From Candidatus Nomurabacteria bacterium RIFCSPLOWO2_01_FULL_41_18 (lineage in GTDB: Bacteria; Patescibacteriota; Minisyncoccia; Phycocordibacterales; UBA9973), in assembly GCA_001785865.1 (NCBI GenBank), contig MFUZ01000002.1, forward strand, positions 22,128 through 86,127: a DNA stretch of 64,000 nt, given 5' to 3'. The position numbers and the translations under genes were made by a program. Of this stretch, positions 707 through 17,712 are shown piece after piece. A model generated the notes under the pieces. The model had not been told where the DNA came from. It worked only from the letters and a program-made list of their open reading frames with translations, and made no database searches. Within the stretch, counting starts at the first letter, position 1; every line of letters starts with the position of its first letter.

Positions 707-1279
707 ATGGAAGAAATAGAGGTAAAATTTTTAGACGTAAATAAAGAAGAAATTGAAAAAAAGTTAAAAAAACTTGGGGCGACTTTTGTCGGAGTTTTTG
801 ACTACAGATTAAAACCGTATGATTTTCCTGACTTATTTTTGTCAAAAGATAGGAATGCCTGGATTAGATTAAGAGATGAAGGGGATAGAGTGACTTTAGC
901 GTATAAGGAGCGTCTTGGGGTGGGTGAAAACCCTCTCAAAGATAAAGGAATGAAAGAAATTGAAGTAGAAGTTTCAGATTTTGATAAAACATCAAAAATT
1001 CTTGAAGCCGTAGGTTTTGTTGCTAAAGTTTACGAAGAAAGGCGACGCACCAGATATGTTTTGGATGGCGTAGAGTGCGATATAGATGAGTGGCCACTCA
1101 TTCCTCCTTACATAGAATTTGAAGGAAATTCGATCGAAGAATTGAAAGAAATATCCACTAAACTTGGTTTTTCTTGGGATAATCACGCAGTCGCTTCAGC
1201 TTATCAAGTTCTCCAGCATTATTCTGTTGACCCCCATCTTTATTCCGTTTTTACTTTTGAGAAACAGATCAAAAAATAA
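707..1279 (+). CDS. CYTH-domain protein (CyaB/ThTPase-like triphosphate tunnel metalloenzyme)
   Basis: The N-terminus carries the ExExK signature 'EIEVKF', and the length and charged beta-barrel pattern are typical of CYTH. Confidence 0.65.
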   Translation: MEEIEVKFLDVNKEEIEKKLKKLGATFVGVFDYRLKPYDFPDLFLSKDRNAWIRLRDEGDRVTLAYKERLGVGENPLKDKGMKEIEVEVSDFDKTSKILEAVGFVAKVYEERRRTRYVLDGVECDIDEWPLIPPYIEFEGNSIEELKEISTKLGFSWDNHAVASAYQVLQHYSVDPHLYSVFTFEKQIKK

Positions 1280-1317
1280 ATTTTGCAATTTATTTTTTTT
1301 CTGATAAGATAAAGTTT

Positions 1318-1905
1318 ATGAAAAAACATCCAAAAGAAGAGGTTACATATGTCATGTTAAAGCCAGATGGAGTTCGCAAGGGACTCATCGGGGAAGTTAT
1401 AAAGCGTTTTGAACAGCGTGATTTGAAGATTGTGGCGCTTGAAATGTTTCAACCCGATTTTGACAAAGTGAATGATCATTATCCCAAAAATGAAGAGTGG
1501 ATAACTAGACTTGGTAACAAAACTCTCACCACTTATGAAAAATATGGCTATGATGCAATGAAAGATTTTGGAACTACTGATCCTGTCAAAATTGGTCCGA
1601 ATATACGCAAATGGCTTATAAATTACATGACGTCTGCGCCTCTCGTTAAGATGATAGTTAAAGGCGTGCACGCTGTAGATGTAGTTCGCAAAGTGGCGGG
1701 AGACACCATGCCCTATAAAGCTGATATGGGCACGATTCGTGGAGATTTCTCTATAGATAGCCCTGCGCTCGCTAATATGGAAAAAAGGGCTGTTATGAAT
1801 ATAGTTCACTGTTCTGAAACTCCAGAGGAAGCAGAACATGAGATAAAACACTGGTTTGGAAAAAGTAAAACTCATGACTATAAGAGGTTTGGAGTGGATG
1901 AATAA
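1318..1905 (+). CDS. ndk: nucleoside diphosphate kinase (long form with about 40-aa internal insertion)
   Basis: 'VMLKPDGVRKGLIGEVIKRFEQRDLKIVALEM' and the 'NIVHCSE' catalytic His block match Ndk. An extra segment lies between the HY and YM blocks. Confidence 0.8.
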   Translation: MKKHPKEEVTYVMLKPDGVRKGLIGEVIKRFEQRDLKIVALEMFQPDFDKVNDHYPKNEEWITRLGNKTLTTYEKYGYDAMKDFGTTDPVKIGPNIRKWLINYMTSAPLVKMIVKGVHAVDVVRKVAGDTMPYKADMGTIRGDFSIDSPALANMEKRAVMNIVHCSETPEEAEHEIKHWFGKSKTHDYKRFGVDE

Positions 1906-1908
1906 TCT

Positions 1909-2460
1909 ATGTATGAAGTTGAGGTAAAAGCACATCTCAAAGACAGGAAATCTGTTATAAAAAAACTAGAAAGTTTGGGTTGTAGATTCTCTAAAGAATT
2001 GCACCAAGTTGACCACATTTTTGCTCCCGAAGGAAATCCTTTTCCTTTACCATTTGAAATTCCAATCCTGCGAGTGCGTAAATCTAATAATAAATATTTC
2101 TTTACTTTAAAAATCTCTCAATCTAGTCGACAAGATTGTATTGAAAGAGAAATGGAAATTGTAGAAGGGGAGAAAATGATTGAAATATTGAAATTAATAA
2201 AATATAAAGAATTCGCTGTAGTGGATAAAAAAAGAATTAAAACCAATTTCAAGGATATGGAAATTGTCCTGGATGATGTGAAAGATTTGGGAGAGTTTAT
2301 AGAAGCTGAGAAAATTGTTACACATGAACATCATGAATATAGAAAAAAGATTCAAGAAGAACTGTTTGAGTTTCTTGAGACATTAGGTGTGACCAAAGAG
2401 AACAGAGTTATTGATGGCAAATACGACATTATGCTTTATAACAAACTAAATGAGAGATGA
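1909..2460 (+). CDS. CYTH-domain protein (second copy)
   Basis: N-terminal 'YEVEVKAHL' is the ExExK motif. Size and the LRVRK/FTLK/IEAE pattern are consistent with CYTH. Confidence 0.55.
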   Translation: MYEVEVKAHLKDRKSVIKKLESLGCRFSKELHQVDHIFAPEGNPFPLPFEIPILRVRKSNNKYFFTLKISQSSRQDCIEREMEIVEGEKMIEILKLIKYKEFAVVDKKRIKTNFKDMEIVLDDVKDLGEFIEAEKIVTHEHHEYRKKIQEELFEFLETLGVTKENRVIDGKYDIMLYNKLNER

Positions 2461-2463
2461 TTT

Positions 2464-3063
2464 ATGATAAAAGTTGTTATTTTTGATGCAGATGGAGTGT
2501 TGGTTCATGGTGAAAGAAGATTCAGTAAGACTCTTTCGGAAAAGCATGGAATTTCTTTAGAAACAACACTGCCATTCTTTACTGGACCTTTTCAAGAATG
2601 CTTGGTTGGAAATTTAGATTTAAAAAAAATTATTTTGCCATATTTAAATACTTGGGGTTGGGATAAAGGAGTAGATGTTCTTTTAGACTATTGGTTTTCA
2701 CTTGAAAGTAAAACGGATAAAGAGATAATTAAATATATTAAAGAATTAAGGCAAAAAGGAATAGTATGTTTGCTGGCTACCAATAATGAAAAATATCGTT
2801 TCCAGTATATGATGGATAAAATGGGATTGGTAAATGTATTTGATAAAACATATTCTTCAGCTCACTTGGGTCACAAAAAACCAGAGCAAGCTTTTTTCTT
2901 AAAAATATACAAAGAATTGAGTAATATAAAAAAAGAAGAAATACTTTTTGTTGATGATAGTGTAGAAAACATAGAAGGAGCCAAAAAATTTGGTATTAGG
3001 GTAGAACTTTTTGAATCTATAAAAGATTTAAAGAAAAAACTTTCATTTTTAAACAAAAAATAA
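2464..3063 (+). CDS. HAD-superfamily hydrolase (subfamily IA-like)
   Basis: DxDGV motif 'FDADGVL', a conserved Lys 'HKKPE', and 'VDDS' as motif IV. Confidence 0.75.
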   Translation: MIKVVIFDADGVLVHGERRFSKTLSEKHGISLETTLPFFTGPFQECLVGNLDLKKIILPYLNTWGWDKGVDVLLDYWFSLESKTDKEIIKYIKELRQKGIVCLLATNNEKYRFQYMMDKMGLVNVFDKTYSSAHLGHKKPEQAFFLKIYKELSNIKKEEILFVDDSVENIEGAKKFGIRVELFESIKDLKKKLSFLNKK

Positions 3064-6165: not shown

Positions 6166-6363
6166 CTATGTGAATGGTAATAAATGGCTCTTCGGCTTGT
6201 TTTTAATAATAAAATTTTTGCCTTTCTTGCCGGCAAGTTGTTTCGTGCGGGATTGTTTTGCATTGAAATGATTAAAACCTGGTTTACGTGAAAGTATCTT
6301 TCCACTTTTTGTGATTTTTAATCTCTTACTATATGATTTGTTTGTTTTCATACCTTTTCCCAT
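6166..6363 (-). CDS. rpmI: 50S ribosomal protein L35
   Basis: 65 aa, 'MGKGMKTNKSYSKRLKITKSGKILSRKPGFNHF', which is L35-like, in the infC-rpmI-rplT arrangement. Confidence 0.85.
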   Translation of the reverse strand: MGKGMKTNKSYSKRLKITKSGKILSRKPGFNHFNAKQSRTKQLAGKKGKNFIIKNKPKSHLLPFT

Positions 6364-6367
6364 ATAA

Positions 6368-6952
6368 TTACTTCTTTTCTATTGTGGTAATCAAACCTTT
6401 CGGACCTTTCTTATACGCATCGGATATCTTGTAATCTTCGGTGATTAAGTGAAGCACTCTATCCAAACGTTCTTTTAAAAATTTCTCATCCATATATTTC
6501 GCGCGTCCAGCAAGGAAAAGTTCCACTTTGACTCGATGACCTTCCTTGATCCATTTGGAAGCGGTTTTCGCTTTCAATTCCAAATCATGATCTCCCGTTC
6601 CTATCTTGATCTGAATTCCTTTGGTCTCTGTCTTGTTTGCGCCTGCTTTGGCTTTCTTCAATTTCTTACTTGCCTCATACTGATATTTTCCAAAATCCAT
6701 CAGCTTTGCCAAGGGCGGGTTGGCATTTGGGCCTATCTCTATCAAATCTAAACCCTTTCCTTGCGCGAGCTCCAGAGCGTCTTTTATACTTAAAACACCG
6801 AGATTTTTATTTTCACTGTCTAAAACCCGAAGTTCCGTCGCTCGTATTTGGTTGTTTATTCTTTCACGCAATTGATATAAATAGTGCTCACTAAGTCTTT
6901 TGATATCTTTGACTAATAAGAATATAGCGTATTGGGGGCTGAAAGTCAACAC
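6368..6952 (-). CDS. infC: translation initiation factor IF-3
   Basis: 'INNQIRATELRVLDSENKNLGVLSIKDALELAQGKGLDLIEIGPNANPPLAKLMDFGKYQYE' is the IF3 N and C domains. The true start may be non-ATG and internal. Confidence 0.85.
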   Translation of the reverse strand: MLTFSPQYAIFLLVKDIKRLSEHYLYQLRERINNQIRATELRVLDSENKNLGVLSIKDALELAQGKGLDLIEIGPNANPPLAKLMDFGKYQYEASKKLKKAKAGANKTETKGIQIKIGTGDHDLELKAKTASKWIKEGHRVKVELFLAGRAKYMDEKFLKERLDRVLHLITEDYKISDAYKKGPKGLITTIEKK

Positions 6953-6980
6953 ATTGAAATGATATTAAATTAAGCCTATA

Positions 6981-9566
6981 ATGAATAGAATGAAAGAAAT
7001 ATGGAGTCGAAAATTAGACTCATTTAAGGAAGAAATAAAAAAAGTCTCTAGTGCTACGGGGCAATCCTTTGATCTTTCTGAAGATCAGAGAAATAAAACA
7101 CTTAAAGAGTTTAAAAAAACTGATAGAGCAAGGCTTCGAGCGTTTATTTCTATAATAAATAAATTAGACGAAAAAGAAGAGAGTGGCACATCTAACGATG
7201 GTGAAAAGGTAGAAGCAAAATTTTCTAAAGAACTTAAGGTGCTTCGTATTTTGGATTCTGTCGATCTTTTCATAAAACAGTATGAAAAAGGAGAACATTC
7301 TACACTTGAACCAAGGCAAGTGGAGTCATTAGTAAAAATTGCTGCCTTTCTTCGTTCTGGTAAAAGGAGAGGTTATGTGGAATTACCTACAGGTTTGGGT
7401 AAGACTGTCATTTTTGCTGAGCTTATAGAAGCTTTAAAAGATGTGCCTGATATGAAGATTCTTGTTGTTGGAAGTGGAAATATTAATGCAATACAGAATG
7501 TCCAAAAAGTAGAGCGATTTAGTGGGGGAGAAGTTGGACAATATTTTGCTGACAAAAAAGAATTACATGCCAAGGTAACAGTTTGTAACTATAATGGTCT
7601 AAGAAATGCCATTAGTAATGGCAGTTTTAAAAGTGGTGATTTTGATTTGGTTTTATTGGATGAAGTTCACGATGGTTTGGGTAAAATTACTCAAGAATCT
7701 ATTAATAAAACTTTCAAAAAAGAAACAATTATAGGATTTTCTGCTACGGCTACTTATGAATTATTGAAAGGTAGAACTGCATCAGATTTTTTACCTATTG
7801 AAATAGATAAGATGGGGGTTGTAGAGGCAGTCAAGGGGAATTTACTTTCAGCATTTAATGTTGAAATTATAAAAGTTCCGATTGTTTTAGGGGGTATACG
7901 TGTGAGGCACGGTGATTATTTACCCGGTGAATTGGAAAAAAATATCAATACTAAAGAAAGGAATGATTTAATAGTAGATAGTTATATAAGTTTTTATAGA
8001 AGAGAAGGGAGTAAAACTATTGCTTTTTGTACGGGTAGACAACACACCAGAGATCTTGCTAGCGTTTTTGAAGCCAAAGGGATAAAATCAGGAGTTCTTA
8101 CAGGCGAACTTGATATTGATGAGAGGGAGGCTGTTTTACAGAAATGGAAAAATGGAGAAATAGAAGTATTGTGTGGTTCTAAACTTTCATGGCAATCTCT
8201 TGATGAAACAGAGGCAACAATAGGTCTCAACGTAAAACCCAGTCTCTCAGAAAAGGATGTAATACAAAGAGGTGGTCGATTACTTCGTCGTTCGCAAGTG
8301 AGAAATAATAAAAGAGCAACTATTGTAGAGTTTTTAGATGAATGGCGAGAAAATAATAATCGCCCCGTATTTTATTCTGAAGTATTAGAAACTGCGGAAG
8401 CTCAACCAGATAAATGGACAAGTGATGTTTCGGGAACAGGGCTCAGTGAAGCGACACCTGTGCTTCCAGAGATAATTGAGACAGCAAGTGTTTCACCAGT
8501 GGTTGAAATACCTGTAGAAATTAAATCTAGTGCTATTAATACGACTCAAGAAAAGGAAATAACAGACTCTGGAGTTGTGCGTTATTTTGATACAAACCAA
8601 GTTATGGAGATTAGTAACAGAAATCGTAAATTTAGAAACGAGGGGTATTTTGAATATGCACCAAAAGAATGGATGAGTGCCAATATAATTGCTGTTGAAG
8701 TAGGTGCGACCACAAAGGAAGTCGATACTATAATATTTAATGTTGCGAAAGAGATTTCTAGAAATAAATTTGAAAAGAGCTCAGGGGTATATCTTAGTTC
8801 TTTAGGAATAAAAAGGATTTTTTATGGACCAGAAATTCTCGATAAGGTTTATATTCATTTAATTGGTTCAACGAGAATTGAAAAAATTAAAAGTGGAACA
8901 TTGGAAATTGCTAGAAGTTTTGATGAATTAGAAAAAGAATCATTAGAAAAAGACCACGAAACGCAATATGAAAGACAGATAGACTTAGAATATAGAGATT
9001 ACGATTTACTTCCCAGTTTCACTTTGGAAGGAGATAGTTTGGAAGATGAAGAAGAAGGGGTGAACATCGGAGATATTTCTGAATTACATCCTGAGGGGGA
9101 ACAAATAGAAGGGAAACTTAGTGATTTAATTGGTTATCGTTATTCTATTCAAGGAGGTAAAATGGGTAATTATAGAAGTAGTCTTAAGAAACCCAAAATA
9201 GAGAGGATGTTAAAACAAACCGAAAGATATGGACTACATCCTGTTCGTGGTTTAAGAAAGAACAATTTAGATTTTAGAAGTGAAATAGAGGAACAAGAAA
9301 TGGAGAAAATAATGATGGATATAATTTCTTCTCCAGATATTTTAACTGATCGAGAAAGAACAGTAGTATCAATGCTATATTTAAATAATGAGGATGAAAA
9401 AAATACACAAGACATTGTCGGCGAGCATTTTGGAGTTACCGGTTCGTTGATTGGTGGAATACGTCGTAGAGCACTCAGAAAAATAAGAGAAGCTATTGAT
9501 ATATATGAGCGTACAGGTAAAATTGCTCCCGATTATGCTGAAGCTATTAGGAAACCCACTATTTAA
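6981..9566 (+). CDS. SF2 DEAD/DEAH-family helicase (res-subunit-like) fused to C-terminal sigma-70 region-4-like HTH
   Basis: Motif I 'PTGLGKT', motif II 'LLDEVHD', motif III 'FSATAT' and motif VI 'QRGGRLLRR' are present. The C-terminus 'LTDRERTVVSMLYL...QDIVGEHFGVTGSLIGGIRRRALRKIRE' resembles sigma-70 region 4 / LuxR HTH. Confidence 0.7.
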   Translation: MNRMKEIWSRKLDSFKEEIKKVSSATGQSFDLSEDQRNKTLKEFKKTDRARLRAFISIINKLDEKEESGTSNDGEKVEAKFSKELKVLRILDSVDLFIKQYEKGEHSTLEPRQVESLVKIAAFLRSGKRRGYVELPTGLGKTVIFAELIEALKDVPDMKILVVGSGNINAIQNVQKVERFSGGEVGQYFADKKELHAKVTVCNYNGLRNAISNGSFKSGDFDLVLLDEVHDGLGKITQESINKTFKKETIIGFSATATYELLKGRTASDFLPIEIDKMGVVEAVKGNLLSAFNVEIIKVPIVLGGIRVRHGDYLPGELEKNINTKERNDLIVDSYISFYRREGSKTIAFCTGRQHTRDLASVFEAKGIKSGVLTGELDIDEREAVLQKWKNGEIEVLCGSKLSWQSLDETEATIGLNVKPSLSEKDVIQRGGRLLRRSQVRNNKRATIVEFLDEWRENNNRPVFYSEVLETAEAQPDKWTSDVSGTGLSEATPVLPEIIETASVSPVVEIPVEIKSSAINTTQEKEITDSGVVRYFDTNQVMEISNRNRKFRNEGYFEYAPKEWMSANIIAVEVGATTKEVDTIIFNVAKEISRNKFEKSSGVYLSSLGIKRIFYGPEILDKVYIHLIGSTRIEKIKSGTLEIARSFDELEKESLEKDHETQYERQIDLEYRDYDLLPSFTLEGDSLEDEEEGVNIGDISELHPEGEQIEGKLSDLIGYRYSIQGGKMGNYRSSLKKPKIERMLKQTERYGLHPVRGLRKNNLDFRSEIEEQEMEKIMMDIISSPDILTDRERTVVSMLYLNNEDEKNTQDIVGEHFGVTGSLIGGIRRRALRKIREAIDIYERTGKIAPDYAEAIRKPTI

Positions 9567-9616: not shown

Positions 9617-10066
9617 ATGGCTAATTATGCAGAAAACAGAAAAGCGAGATTTAATTATGAAATTGTGGAAAAATACGAAACGGGTATTGAGCTCTTGGGC
9701 GTGGAAGTGAAATCTGTGCGAGGAGGGCAAATGTCGCTCGAGGGAGCTTTTGTTATTGTTCGTGGAGGAGAAGTGTATTTAATTAATGCGAATATCCCGC
9801 CTTATCAAGCCAAAAATGCTCCCAAAGATTATGACCCACTTCGCAATAGAAGGCTTTTGTTAACCAAAAAAGAAATCACAGAACTTGCCGGAAATGAGAA
9901 AAACAAGAGTTTGACAATTGTGCCTATTTCAGTGTATAATAAAGGAAGAAAAATAAAAGTAGAAATTGCTTTGGTGAAAGGTAAGAAAAAGTTTGATAAA
10001 CGTAGGGCGCTTGAAAAACGTGAGACAGATCGTAGTATTAGGCGCGAAATGAAAAGAGGAGAATAA
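9617..10066 (+). CDS. smpB: SsrA-binding protein SmpB
   Basis: 'RKARFNYEIVEKYETGIELLGVEVKSVRGG...DPLRNRRLLLTKKEI' matches SmpB, and the tmRNA gene follows. Confidence 0.9.
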   Translation: MANYAENRKARFNYEIVEKYETGIELLGVEVKSVRGGQMSLEGAFVIVRGGEVYLINANIPPYQAKNAPKDYDPLRNRRLLLTKKEITELAGNEKNKSLTIVPISVYNKGRKIKVEIALVKGKKKFDKRRALEKRETDRSIRREMKRGE

Positions 10067-10085
10067 CAGATAGAACTTTGAAAAA

Positions 10086-10132
10086 CCTCACCTGCCCTAA
10101 AGGGCATCCTCTCCTGGAAGGAGAGGTTTGGT
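10086..10132. repeat. family-1 palindromic repeat (ACCTCACC..GCCCTAAAGGGC..CCTCTCCTGGAAGGAGAGG..GGTGG)
   Basis: Two adjacent stem-loops with the family-1 end motif, between smpB and ssrA. Confidence 0.7.
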
Positions 10133-10167
10133 GGATAAAAGAAATATTAATTTCTTTTACAATATTT

Positions 10168-10564
10168 GGGGATGCAAGGCATAGACAGTAGGCCTTTTGT
10201 CATCGATGCATACCGAGAATGGACGTAACCTCGTAAAACTTCGTCCAATAGCTTAATTGCAAAATTAGCTTCCAAAGTGAAAGCAGCAGTCTCTCCATAC
10301 TTCGGTATGAATGACTTTGCTTTCGCTTCAGTTTCCGCTTCGGCGTAACTGATGTCTCTCTTATAGACTTCCGATATATAAGATGAGGCACAATATTATC
10401 GGGATAAGGAAATACCCGTTCGAGTATTTCACTAAAACCTAGAACTCGATTAAAAAATATTTGGCTCGTTTAAGAATTTTTTAATTTAAACAAAAAAGCG
10501 TGCTATGTATGTAGACTTCTTTACAAAAACCTTCTGCACTGGGATTCAATTTCCCACATCTCCA
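10168..10564 (+). ncRNA. ssrA: tmRNA (transfer-messenger RNA)
   Basis: The gene lies directly downstream of smpB. The 5' GGGGATG pairs with the 3' CATCTCC followed by A, giving a 7-bp acceptor with a G3:U70 wobble that marks Ala identity. The T-arm is TGGGA-TTCAATT-TCCCA. The internal GCATACCGAG...CCTCGTAAAA block resembles E. coli tmRNA. An Ala-rich tag reading frame ends ...NDFAFASVSASA at TAA 10346-10348. Confidence 0.7.
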
Positions 10565-10626
10565 CTCGACTTATTGTAATTTTTAAACTTGACTTAGAGT
10601 TTTAAGTAGACAATAATTAATACACT

Positions 10627-10935
10627 ATGAGTACAGAACCAGGACCAAATTCAGGGGAAAATATAAACAATCTTTCTCTTGAAGAAATCAAGTTAAGGTT
10701 AGAGGCTTTGAATCAAAAGTTTGATGAGTTGGATGGCCATTCTTTTTCTAGTATCGGAAATCCAGTTGAATTCAAAAAAACACTTGATGGAGTTGTTGTC
10801 AAGAACATTATTTCATCTGGGAGAAATTTTGCCGTTGCTAAAATGAAGGTTGAACGTATGCTAAAAATACTAAATGAAATCTCAGCACTTAAATCAAAAG
10901 AAACACTACTAACTCCTAAAACCCCGAAAGTATAA
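10627..10935 (+). CDS. hypothetical protein
   Basis: A 102-aa ORF with no recognisable motif. Confidence 0.35.
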   Translation: MSTEPGPNSGENINNLSLEEIKLRLEALNQKFDELDGHSFSSIGNPVEFKKTLDGVVVKNIISSGRNFAVAKMKVERMLKILNEISALKSKETLLTPKTPKV

Positions 10936-10982
10936 AGGTAATTTTATTTGGTTTTTTATATTTTTTGTGCTAATCTATAGCA

Positions 10983-12920
10983 ATGGATTTTAATTTTTTA
11001 AATAAGAAAGACGATCAAGGTGGCGGTAGAAACAAAGGCAGAAAAGTGGGCGGATCCAACTTTAAAGGCAGTATCGCGAGCACCATATTTATCTTCATGC
11101 TGATCACAGCTATCTATTTGGCTGTCTCTCCTGAAGGAAAAGCTGTCCCGGAGATACCGATCTCGGATTTGGCCAAAAGTGTCGCTCTGGGAGAAGTAAA
11201 AAAGATCTTAGTCGAAGGGGAGAAGCTCACGATCACTTATCAAAACGACGAAATAAAAAAATCCAAGAAAGAAGTGGGTTCGGCCCTCTCGCAAACTCTC
11301 TTCAATTACGGGGTGACCAGCGAAGCGCTCGGCAAGGCGGAAATAGAGATCAAGAACGAAAGTGGATTTATGTTTGTGCTTATAAACATTCTTCCGTTCC
11401 TATTGCCGATAGTTTTTATTTTGCTTTTCTTTTGGTATCTATCAAGGCAAGTGAAAGGCGCCGGCATGCAAGCACTTTCTTTTGGTCAGTCCAAAGCACG
11501 TATCACTGACCCAAATGATAAAAATAATAGAGTTACTTTCAAAGATGTGGCCGGATGCAAGGAAGCCAAAGAAGAATTGAAAGAAATTGTGGATTTCTTG
11601 AAAAGCCCGAAAAAGTTTTTAGACATCGGCGCTAGGATCCCGAAAGGAGTGATCTTGACTGGAGCTCCGGGCACAGGCAAGACATTGCTTGCGAGAGCCG
11701 TGGCAGGGGAAGCTGGCGTGCCTTTTTTCCATTTATCTGGAAGTGAATTTGTGGAAATGTTTGTCGGCGTGGGAGCTTCACGAGTGCGAGATCTTTTCAA
11801 AATGGCCAAGAAAGCGGCGCCGGCTATTATCTTCGTGGATGAGATAGATGCGATCGGGCGAACCCGCGGAGGAGGCTTTGGTGGAGGCAACGACGAGCGC
11901 GAGCAGACTTTAAACCAAATATTGGTGGAAATGGACGGCTTTGAACCGAACGACAAAGTGATCGTGATGGCAGCGACAAATAGGCCGGACGTGCTTGATC
12001 CAGCACTCATTCGCCCCGGACGTTTTGATAGAAAAGTATTGCTGGATTTGCCTGACAGGGCTGACCGTGAAGAAATATTGAAAATTCATGCAGTAAAAAA
12101 ACCTCTCGCCGAAGATATTAATTTGAAATTAATTGCTGAACGTACCCCAGGATTTTCTGGTGCTGATTTGTATTCATTGATGAACGAAGGCGCGATACTT
12201 GCGGCACGCGAAAATAGGAAAAAAGTTTTCCAATTTGATTTAATTCGAGCTATTGAAAAAGTAATGCTCGGTCCTGAACGCAAAAGCCATTTGCTTTCTA
12301 AAAAAGAAAAAGAAATTACTGCATATCACGAAGCAGGTCATGCTCTAGTGGCTTCGGTGCTTCCTTATGCCGACCCAGTGCATAAAGTTTCTATTATTGC
12401 GCGTGGAAATGCTGGCGGATATACTTTGAAATTGCCTTTAGAAGAGCGACGTTTGCAATCCAAGAAAGAATTTATAGATGATATCGCTATGTCTCTCGGC
12501 GGATATGTGGCAGAGCAAATGATCTTTGGAGACATTACTACTGGACCGTCTAGTGATTTGCAAATGTCTACAAATTTGGCTCGGGCGATGGTCACACGCT
12601 GGGGTATGTCAGATGTAATTGGACCAATTGCGCTAGTCAGTGGGGGAGGTAGAATGCAATATGGAGAAGCTCCTGAACAAGAATATTCTGAAGCTGTTTC
12701 GACGAAAGTGGATGCTGAAGTTTCCAGAATAATAAGTGATGGATTAAAATCTGCTGAAAAAGTTCTTTCCGAACACAGAAAAGCATTTGATGCTATTGCG
12801 CACAAGCTTATAGAAGTGGAAACTTTAGAACAAGAAGAATATGAGAAGATATTAACTGCGCATGGAATAGTTCTAAAGAAGAAAGAAATTATAGCTCCGA
12901 CTGACGCTCAAGTTGCCTAA
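10983..12920 (+). CDS. ftsH: ATP-dependent zinc metalloprotease FtsH
   Basis: An N-terminal TM region, the AAA Walker A '[18 protein letters not shown]', SRH, and the zinc motif 'HEAGHAL'. Confidence 0.95.
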
Positions 12921-13528: not shown

Positions 13529-13777
13529 ATGTTTAGTATCTACATACTAAAAAGTTTAAAAAAAGGAAAAAGATATATTGGTTATACTGGCAAAACGGCT
13601 GAAAAAAGATTAATTGAACACAATTCCAATTCAAATGTTTTCACAAGACAAAATAAACCTTTTGTGTTAATCTATACCGAAGAATACCAGACCAAAGCTG
13701 AAGCAATCAAGAGAGAAAAATTTTTAAAGTCTGGGCAGGGAAGAAAGTTTTTAGATGGTAAAATATCGGGCGTGTAG
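13529..13777 (+). CDS. small stand-alone GIY-YIG nuclease domain protein
   Basis: 'FSIYILKSLKKGKRYIGYTGKTAEKRLIEHN' is a classic GIY-YIG motif. The stop codon TAG overlaps the 5' end of the downstream tRNA. Confidence 0.75.
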   Translation: MFSIYILKSLKKGKRYIGYTGKTAEKRLIEHNSNSNVFTRQNKPFVLIYTEEYQTKAEAIKREKFLKSGQGRKFLDGKISGV

Positions 13778-13840
13778 CTCAGTTGGTAGAGCGCTTAGCT
13801 TATACCTAAGTGGCCCTTGGTTCGAATCCAAGCACGCCCA
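13768..13840 (+). tRNA. tRNA, anticodon loop CTTATAC, predicted anticodon UAU (Ile, AUA-reading)
   Basis: Hand-folded cloverleaf: acceptor GGGCGTG/CACGCCC plus A; D-arm GCTC..GAGC; anticodon stem CTTAG/CTAAG; T-arm CTTGG-TTCGAAT-CCAAG. Confidence 0.7.
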
Positions 13841-13931
13841 CAGCTCAGTTTCCGCCAGAGGCGGACCAGCCTTTGGCTGGGGTTGAGAGCTTATACCTCT
13901 GGGGTCCTTGGTTTGAATCCAAGAGGACGGA
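13841..13931 (+). pseudogene. decayed tRNA copy (D-arm remnant + motif X + anticodon/T arms + 3' acceptor) lacking a matching 5' acceptor strand
   Basis: It aligns to the intact tRNA at 13768 with deletions. It has the same CTTATAC anticodon loop. Motif X is inserted at the same D-loop position as in the 13467 fragment. Confidence 0.5.
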
Positions 13932-17153: not shown

Positions 17154-17209
17154 CTAGCAAGCGAAGACTTAGCTAAACTCTATAATTTTCTTCGGATTTC
17201 GATTTGTTG

Positions 17210-17298
17210 CGGAGCCGGGCGGATTCGAACCGCCGAGGGGTTTTGAAGCCCCTGCCTCTTTAGCAAAGAGGTACGTTAGACCACTCTGACACGGCTCC
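17210..17298 (-). tRNA. tRNA-Ser (GCU)
   Basis: The reverse complement folds as a class II tRNA: acceptor GGAGCCG, anticodon arm CCTCT-TTGCTAA-AGAGG, a long variable arm, and T-arm GGCGG-TTCGAAT-CCGCC. Confidence 0.8.
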
Positions 17299-17390: not shown

Positions 17391-17477
17391 GGATGAGTGA
17401 CCGAGTGGCTTAAGGTAGCGGTTTACTAAACCGCCGTCCCCTTAAAAGGACCGTGAGTTCGAATCTCACCTCATCCG
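17391..17477 (+). tRNA. class II (long variable arm) tRNA with apparent anticodon ACU (Ser-like; needs software confirmation)
   Basis: Acceptor GGATGAG/CTCATCC plus G. The fold parallels tRNA-Ser. The anticodon arm is GCGGT-TTACTAA-ACCGC and the T-arm is GTGAG-TTCGAAT-CTCAC. Confidence 0.6.
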
Positions 17478-17712
17478 CTTCAAAAATATATCTCATATAT
17501 GGATTACCATATAACAACAGCACTTGAACATTAAACAAATAAATTTGCTTATGCTCCTCACTTGTTGTTATAATGTATTTAGTCGATTATTATTAAATTT
17601 TTAATCGAATTAAGTTTATGATCAAAGGAGAACACTAGAAGCAATTGGGAATGGTTGGTTTAATTTACTTATTTAAAAGAGGCGGCTTGTTTGCTGTCTC
17701 TTTTGTGTTATT

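Follow-up and report, generated by a model that had tools for sequence, protein, structure and literature searches.

A superfamily 2 motor protein of Patescibacteria with a sigma-70 region 4 domain in its C-terminal tail

The stretch of DNA examined here, referred to below as the window, comprises 64,000 nucleotides of contig MFUZ01000002.1 from Candidatus Nomurabacteria bacterium RIFCSPLOWO2_01_FULL_41_18. Its subject is a gene at 6981..9566 on the plus strand whose product joins a complete superfamily 2 (SF2) helicase-type motor to a genuine sigma-70 region 4 domain (sigma4). Public annotation of this protein reads either "hypothetical protein" or "Helicase ATP-binding domain-containing protein", and full-text literature searches returned no description of a helicase-sigma4 fusion, be it for Patescibacteria or for any other group. 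As a whole the window is unremarkable Patescibacterial chromosome, and the family to which the gene belongs is always chromosomal. On one side lies infC-rpmI-rplT on the minus strand, with only 28 bp between the helicase gene and the divergent infC start, and on the other lie smpB, the gene for transfer-messenger RNA (tmRNA), and ftsH.

The open reading frame (ORF) has 861 codons as listed, and the frame is real. Orthologous proteins begin at the fourth codon (MKE...), as does the NCBI entry OGI68246.1, a "hypothetical protein" of 858 aa from Candidatus Nomurabacteria, and this makes the ATG at 6990 the probable true start, for a protein of 858 aa. A promoter-like sequence, TTGAAA-17-TATAAT, lies at 6954..6982 on the plus strand and agrees with the consensus at 11 of 12 positions; it is a consensus match only, and the region overall is not richer in sites of this type than shuffled sequence. 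Its -10 hexamer, TATAAT, overlaps the annotated ATG at 6981, which suggests that an mRNA from this predicted promoter would be leaderless or carry a very short leader, beginning at the ATG at 6990.

Exactly the same 861-aa protein recurs on 14 independently assembled contigs, and eight full-length orthologue clusters with 47-64% identity share the same uninterrupted architecture; Candidatus Taylorbacteria is the name attached to one of these, and Candidatus Nomurabacteria the name attached to the cluster of the window protein. Conservation of individual segments is given throughout as the mean pairwise identity among these orthologues. Such recurrence speaks strongly against an artefact in which a sequencing or assembly error falsely fused a helicase gene to a sigma-like gene, or in which the similarity arose by chance, as do sigma4 statistics far beyond chance expectation. 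We found nothing in support of an artefact, P0012, a distant relative considered below, being alone in its dependence on a single 3.8-kb contig, and we give this explanation practically no credence. The exact family is nonetheless very small and rare: in a profile search of 1.84 billion representative proteins, the whole C-terminal half was recovered at E<1e-30 in three clusters only. Scans of genome and metagenome contigs with generic Walker-A-type patterns gave mostly ordinary helicases, with no true orthologue among the matches listed and only L007, L014, and L087-L089 informative among them, and a scan of viral contigs found no relatives.

The protein begins with a helical extension (residues 1-100; 6981..7280, plus strand; identity 0.49) that has no family match and is conserved throughout a wider Patescibacterial clade of helicases. 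The SF2 motor follows (residues 101-470; 7281..8390, plus strand; identity 0.69), with RecA1/ResIII at residues 108-257 and RecA2/Helicase_C at residues 339-437. Motif I (Walker A, PTGLGKT, residues 136-142, 7386-7406), motif II (DExH type, DEVH, residues 227-230, 7659-7670), motif III (SAT, residues 254-256, 7740-7748), and the arginine-finger motif VI (QRGGRLLRR, residues 429-437, 8265-8291), all on the plus strand, are intact and invariant across the eight orthologues. With ResIII at 75.6 bits and Helicase_C at 50.6 bits, both above their Pfam cutoffs, the protein is on its motifs a member of the SF2 helicase/translocase superfamily (ResIII plus Helicase_C), and an initial annotation of this DNA, made from the letters and ORF translations, was correct in describing a complete SF2 motor, and every motif that it quoted is present, at the residues listed above.

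Placement below the level of the superfamily is less straightforward, since the motor missed every cutoff in a scan of curated family models by a wide margin. The XPB/Rad25 model NF045503 gave 48.5 bits against a cutoff of 610, in an alignment limited to RecA2, and the RadD model NF053632 gave 33 bits against 720, with the structural likeness to RadD confined to the generic core. The SNF2-type model PF18766 reached 11.3 bits in the window protein, below its cutoff of 26.7 that some distant clade members do pass, and the features of Mfd (its RNA polymerase-interacting domain, CarD_TRCF, and the TRCF/TRG motor) had no Pfam or NCBIfam match in the protein. By sequence, the nearest protein of solved structure is SauUSI, a type IV restriction enzyme, through its motor (E=1.5e-15), and XPB comes second. 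Foldseek searches with the motor model, which is of low confidence, returned SF2 cores throughout (RadD, XPB, DEAD-box proteins, and SauUSI). RadD appears both in the curated-model scan and among the structural matches, and the best matches over the full core are DNA enzymes, namely SauUSI, XPB, RadD, and fungal mitochondrial-type DNA helicases.

With SauUSI, XPB, and RadD the window protein shares the motif set Q, I, Ia, II (DEVH), III (SAT), and VI, but it lacks the phospholipase D (PLD) nuclease and target-recognition domain of SauUSI, the damage recognition domain (DRD) and thumb motif (ThM) of XPB, and the zinc finger and C-terminal domain of RadD. It also differs from these motors in motif Ia, which is unusual in the window's orthologue group: VVGSGNINAIQN, at residues 160-173 (nucleotides ~7458-7499), is invariant in the eight orthologues, and all more distant clade members have VVPT..L..Q at this place. 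Judged by these profiles and motifs, it is an unclassified ResIII-type SF2 motor.

At the other end of the protein, the segment from LTDRERTVVSMLYL to GIRRRALRKIRE (residues 788-837) had been likened in the initial annotation to the helix-turn-helix (HTH) of both sigma factors and LuxR-type regulators. The comparison with sigma factors is borne out by Pfam, by profile alignment, and by structure prediction. Sigma70_r4 matches residues 787-837 (9339-9491, plus strand) with 29.8 bits against a gathering cutoff of 24.1 (E=4e-7), so that the C-terminal similarity does not fall below threshold, and the same family is matched by seven of the eight orthologues at E<=10, with a best value of 4.6e-13. 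A profile of the eight orthologous C-terminal halves retrieves SigA/RpoD sigma4 chains from the PDB (E=5e-9), and hhalign aligns it to 21 full-length sigma factors over 90 columns with 99% probability (E=4.5e-18). In an AlphaFold2 (AF2) model of the C-terminal half, the sigma4 region is confident, with a predicted local distance difference test (pLDDT) score of 81-86, and 50 of the 50 top Foldseek matches that this model has among PDB structures belong to sigma region 4, at template modelling (TM) scores of 0.65-0.85 and root-mean-square deviations of 1.8-2.7 A against isolated sigma4 domains. The tail domain (residues 765-845; 9273..9515, plus strand) is therefore a genuine sigma-70 region 4, with regions 4.1 and 4.2 and the preceding helix. 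It has the four-helix fold of SigA/RpoD-type sigma factors, including region 4.1, the HTH of region 4.2, and the helix before them, and it keeps the signature L-x-x-R-E, T572, G581, A594, and K/R-x-R. The LuxR half of the earlier comparison is to be discarded, as the GerE HTH model had no match in the window protein at E<=10 and every top structural match was a sigma region 4.

What separates this domain from its counterparts is its company: in sigma factors it is joined to regions 2 and 3, and here it is joined to a helicase. Neither the window protein nor its orthologues have a Pfam match to Sigma70_r2 or Sigma70_r3 even at E<=10, and hhalign of the C-terminal half against the 21 sigma factors aligns region 4 alone. 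Because regions 2 and 3 are absent from these comparisons, the protein is not a sigma factor, and no second sigma-like ORF is present within the 64-kb window. We also considered whether a conserved acidic block (SFTLEGDSLEDEEEGVNIGDISEL) could correspond to sigma region 3.2 and the HTH in the middle of the protein to region 3, and rejected this assignment on the strength of the same two results.

The best-known roles of sigma region 4 are to read the -35 element and, in bacterial transcription initiation, to contact the beta flap and activators. In E. coli sigma70 the -35 hexamer is read by R584, E585, R586, R588, and Q589. We aligned the fused sigma4 domains with the 21 genuine sigma factors and with residues 540-613 of E. 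coli sigma70, in what we take to be its sequence, which served for numbering only. In the window protein the five reading positions are occupied by G, S, L, G, and G, within the region 4.2 "recognition" helix VTGSLIGGIRR (residues 819-829; 9435..9467, plus strand), and are followed by the arginine-rich IRRRALRKIR. These positions are 95-100% conserved in the 21 sigma factors but 36-45% in the family, whereas 73-100% of 11 family sequences retain the scaffold residues L551, R554, E555, T572, G581, A594, K597, and R599. No other folded part of the protein is as poorly conserved as sigma4, whose pairwise identities are 0.35 in region 4.1, 0.21 in the recognition helix, and 0.37 in the last helix; the recognition helix is the lowest of all, at 21% against 69% for the motor. 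The idea that the motor carries a sequence-specific, promoter-type HTH, which had been part of the initial annotation, is difficult to maintain with such residues in the reading positions and with the recognition helix as the least conserved folded segment. Some orthologues have a near-canonical recognition helix (TRERIRGI in P0003 and TERIRQI in P0008), and in P0012 and P0013, two distant proteins that also combine helicase and sigma4, the helix is the canonical VTRERIRQIEAKA of primary sigma factors. The history of the domain was likely that of a canonical sigma4 which decayed in the lineage of the window.

Between the motor and sigma4 lie parts that the initial annotation, sound in recognizing the motor and the sigma4 domain, had missed, and some of them are better conserved than sigma4 itself. 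A low-complexity, acidic, variable linker (residues 471-532; 8391..8576, plus strand; identity 0.24), predicted to be disordered, leads into a conserved middle block (residues 533-640, or 533-632 where the next stretch is counted separately; 8577..8900, plus strand; identity 0.56) that contains the motif NQNRKFRNEGY and a single copy of a previously undescribed ~65-aa module, at residues ~559-628, that we refer to as AP-x-GW. AF2 models residues ~564-640 with confidence (pLDDT 78-88) as helix-helix-helix-strand-strand-helix, a predicted fold that resembles a winged HTH. Residues 633-665 are weakly conserved (0.29) and modelled as mostly helical. They are followed by an acidic and aromatic segment, IDLEYRDYDLLPSFTLEGDSLEDEEEGVNIGDISELHP... 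(residues 666-722; 8976..9146, plus strand), which combines an identity of 0.63 with predicted disorder (pLDDT <50). It may act as a peptide for interactions or, by mimicking DNA, as an autoinhibitor. Both it and the middle HTH-like module are more conserved than sigma4.

The AP-x-GW module connects the window family to a larger set of helicases in which the N-terminal extension and motor are common to all members and the tails differ. Two metagenomic relatives, L088 (924 aa) and L089 (783 aa), carry 4-5 tandem 68-aa repeats after the motor, of the form "AP-x-GW...LA..LG...HPEWF...YSPEL", and hhalign identifies residues ~559-628 of the window protein as one copy of this repeat (96.8% probability, E=2.5e-10). 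Arrays of the repeat are found in L088, L089, L014, and P0010, with related forms of it in the last two, and these proteins share with the window protein the N-terminal extension and the clade's motor at 27-34% identity as well as the repeat unit, of which the window protein has one copy; they differ from it in having 4-5 repeats and no sigma4, where the window family has one divergent repeat, the acidic segment, and sigma4. No Pfam family corresponds to the module, the repeat proteins giving only sub-threshold generic HTH matches, and in the exhaustive search of the 1.84 billion representatives the middle part by itself also matched other large proteins. The order of AP-x-GW module, acidic linker, and sigma4 is found in P0043 and P0047 as well as in the window family, with acidic and aromatic stretches likewise preceding sigma4 in these two proteins. 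In P0012 and P0013 the chain ends in sigma4, and P0011 (Magasanikbacteria) has other repeats in its tail. A further clade helicase, on contig L007 of an uncultured Candidatus Saccharibacteria (9755-12187), ends in five ~50-aa repeats of the form "FLSFEDTKKEV..LGIKT..EY...HPNW....L....GWKG.DDFF", for which there is no Pfam match, and a ruvB-like gene lies convergent and just downstream of it.

Because tails vary in this way on a shared extension and motor, the helicase-sigma4 fusion recurs in several divergent Patescibacterial lineages, with sigma4 as one of several interchangeable tail modules of the clade. The initial annotation had called the architecture unusual, and this description fits a rare and uncharacterized fusion of motor and sigma4. 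The novelty lies in the way the domains are combined, in the recurrence of this combination within Patescibacteria, in the decayed -35 readers, and in the AP-x-GW module; the components are of known kinds. Sigma4 turns up in other unexpected settings too: among three metagenomic proteins (P0032, 589 aa; P0034, 938 aa; P0046, 982 aa) there are unrelated proteins with 7-10 tandem copies of Sigma70_r4 and a sigma factor with regions 2, 3, and 4 fused to the C-terminal HTH of DnaA. Such arrays and the DnaA-HTH fusion show that sigma4 serves in proteins as a general-purpose HTH unit.

The explanation that we favor, to which we would assign a probability of roughly 45%, is that the protein is a lineage-specific housekeeping DNA translocase or helicase of Parcubacteria (Nomurabacteria and Taylorbacteria), tethered by HTH modules, with sigma4 as a clamp of low specificity. 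The C-terminal half, made up of the AP-x-GW module, the acidic disordered segment, and the sigma4-derived domain, would then serve as the tether. Sigma4 would hold nucleic acid without reading promoters and so keep the motor on DNA, and the motor would pull or unwind DNA relative to this anchor; one use of such an action could be the remodelling or clearing of branched DNA or of complexes between DNA and protein. A clamp of low specificity is proposed because the fold, its scaffold, and the arginine-rich end of the helix are kept and the -35 readers lost. A role for the tail as a nucleic-acid tether is the parsimonious choice because relatives in the clade carry swappable HTH-like arrays and the middle domain is one such repeat. 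The nature of the closest solved or curated motors, which are dsDNA (double-stranded DNA) translocases and repair helicases (SauUSI, XPB, and RadD), also points in this direction, as do the intact motor motifs, the use of sigma4 as a generic HTH unit in other proteins, and the housekeeping character of the gene neighborhoods. ATPase activity, a DNA rather than an RNA substrate, the tethering role, and any physiological process are all predictions from sequence.

Several observations weigh against this explanation. Two glycines in the recognition helix together with the lost base contacts would weaken ordinary binding of DNA by the HTH, and the functional core could in reality lie in the most conserved parts of the tail, namely the block with NQNRKFRNEGY and the acidic segment. 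Several of the neighboring genes encode parts of the translation machinery. The full-length AF2 model built from eight sequences is poor, with a pLDDT of 56 and a predicted TM score (pTM) of 0.36, and carries no information on contacts between domains; the model of the C-terminal half is good for its two folded domains only.

If DNA binding by the HTH is indeed weakened, this would favor a role in protein docking, and sigma region 4 has a candidate partner. RapA, also an SF2 ATPase, attaches to the beta flap-tip helix of core RNA polymerase, the hydrophobic patch used by sigma region 4, and competes with sigma because both bind this same patch (PMC8501970). By analogy, a helicase bearing sigma4 could reach the same site on the flap and compete there with sigma. 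Docking of this kind would bring the ATPase to the face of the polymerase where RNA exits and upstream DNA lies, from which it could recycle, dislodge, or restart the enzyme in the manner of RapA or Mfd. The initial annotation had proposed a transcription-coupled remodeler, and the protein may be one. That the domain is a sigma region 4 proper rather than a generic HTH is consistent with this possibility, and retention of the scaffold at 73-100% alongside loss of the DNA readers is the pattern expected if the conserved job were docking to a protein. Furthermore, one orthologue is encoded directly after an rpoA/ribosomal-protein cluster and grpE. On the other hand, the retained scaffold residues also form the core of the fold, so their conservation is not proof of flap binding, and relatives in the same clade bear generic HTH-like arrays without any link to RNA polymerase. 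The likeness to RapA/HepA has its own limits: the window protein has neither SNF2 membership, as the sub-cutoff score noted above indicates, nor the RapA N-terminal domain, and it is with its ATPase lobes that RapA touches the flap, a sigma4 domain having no part in this. Docking to the polymerase therefore seems to us doubtful, though deserving of more weight than any other alternative that we considered. The same doubtful standing applies to the larger claim that would follow, of a module stolen from a sigma factor that plugs an SF2 motor onto the beta flap and so creates a new class of sigma-competitive remodeler, similar in function to RapA and Mfd and differently built.

The distant relative P0012 bears on this question through what may be a trace of further sigma regions. 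A full-tail hhalign alignment of this protein spans regions 2.2-4.2, with a weak, collinear region-2-like segment (RFSTYIGRKL) that, if real, would agree with docking to the polymerase; it is unconfirmed by Pfam and falls to 15% probability (P=0.002) once sigma4 is removed. A segment resembling region 3 in P0013 was not significant. We considered reading P0012 as a helicase joined to a near-complete sigma factor and rejected this as more than a hint, as Pfam sees neither region 2 nor region 3 in it.

A bolder variant would make the protein a sigma-like initiation factor that depends on ATP, comparable in bacteria to XPB within TFIIH: the helicase would replace region 2, and sigma4 would hold polymerase and promoter while ATP drives promoter opening. 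The XPB-like affinities of the motor, the canonical primary-sigma helix VTRERIRQIEAKA retained by distant clade members, and the possible remnant of region 2 in P0012 could all be accommodated by such a model. Loss of the -35 readers in the window family and the absence of regions 2 and 3 argue the other way, as does the XPB score of 48.5 bits against a cutoff of 610, and the rare and patchy occurrence of the family is unlike what would be expected of a general factor. We regard it as very unlikely.

The genomic surroundings offer a different perspective. The translation-related neighbors (infC-rpmI-rplT, smpB-tmRNA, ribosomal proteins, and rpsA) that often lie around members of the family would suit an RNA helicase whose HTH-like tails bind RNA and which works in ribosome biogenesis, trans-translation, or RNA decay. 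RecA2 scores weakly against the DbpA, SrmB, RhlB, and CshA models, and DEAD-box structures are among the Foldseek matches. RecA1, however, is of the ResIII/DEVH type, the signature motifs of DEAD-box proteins are absent, and over the full core it is DNA enzymes that match best; dsDNA, moreover, is the typical ligand of sigma4 and winged HTH domains. Gene context is in any case weak evidence here because the neighborhoods are not conserved: orthologues lie with grpE/dnaK after an rpoA-ribosomal cluster, with NUDIX genes, or with alr/gyrB, and no partner gene is conserved between them. An RNA helicase therefore strikes us as improbable.

The neighborhoods bear equally on a role in anti-phage defense or restriction, with the protein as a DNA-targeting motor, which the initial annotation had raised as one option. 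The type IV methyl-directed restriction enzyme model of PADLOC aligns to the motor core with 52.9 bits, PbeA is matched as well, and SauUSI is the closest sequence in the PDB. Only the motor aligns in these comparisons, however, and the protein has no PLD, nuclease, methyltransferase, or sensor domain. A survey of neighborhoods across relatives, which had been suggested as a check, turned up core housekeeping genes that differ between orthologues, with no adjacent defense genes and no defense island, and no relatives were recovered from the viral contigs. We accordingly put the chance of a defense function very low. The tethered DNA motor remains our preferred explanation.

Immediately around the gene, Rfam places a full-length tmRNA at 10168-10567 on the plus strand (113.6 bits), directly 3' of smpB, where ARAGORN reported none in the window. 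Since this tmRNA adjoins smpB, the helicase gene lies immediately upstream of an smpB-ssrA pair. Within smpB, at 9911-9940 on the plus strand and ~230 nucleotides before the tmRNA gene, TTGACA-18-TATAAT matches the sigma-70 consensus at 12 of 12 positions and may be the ssrA promoter. Contigs with an identical helicase vary in what surrounds it. In L003 (ENA ERZ27254845 k141_144576), the infC-rpmI-rplT block and genes upstream of it recur in inverted orientation downstream of smpB (repeated blocks at 173-757 and 6218-7286), an arrangement that could represent a strain-level inversion or duplication or else a chimeric assembly. L001 and L002, which are strain variants, differ from each other 3' of smpB, where one of them has a gene for S-adenosylmethionine synthetase and a LAGLIDADG endonuclease ORF.

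Farther away, the window contains recG, ligA, an addA-like gene, pheT, gyrB, thrS, the gene for RNase R, and type IV pilus genes. A cluster at 707-3063 on the plus strand, with a nucleoside diphosphate kinase gene between two CYTH-domain genes and then a HAD hydrolase gene, may function in nucleotide or polyphosphate metabolism. Two tRNA genes have unusual anticodons, and both are confirmed as tRNAs by Rfam: tRNA-Ile(TAT) at 13768-13841 (plus strand) overlaps a small GIY-YIG ORF (13529-13777) at the latter's 3' end, and tRNA-Ser(ACT) at 17391-17478 (plus strand), with A at position 34, is divergent from the tRNA-Ser(GCT) at 17209-17298.

The repeated joining of sigma4 to an intact motor, with the DNA readers degenerate in one lineage, suggests a second use for a domain of the transcription machinery, as a portable module for docking. 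If it serves only as a DNA tether, then these uncultivated lineages would be rebuilding the accessory tails of their helicases from transcription-factor parts. AP-x-GW, for its part, defines a new HTH-like repeat module absent from Pfam. Docking to RNA polymerase, if shown, would make the finding considerably more interesting. Bacteria with minimal genomes would then couple a motor to transcription by a previously unknown route, and their relatives with a canonical sigma4 and possible remnants of sigma region 2 could even be ATP-dependent, sigma-like initiation factors.

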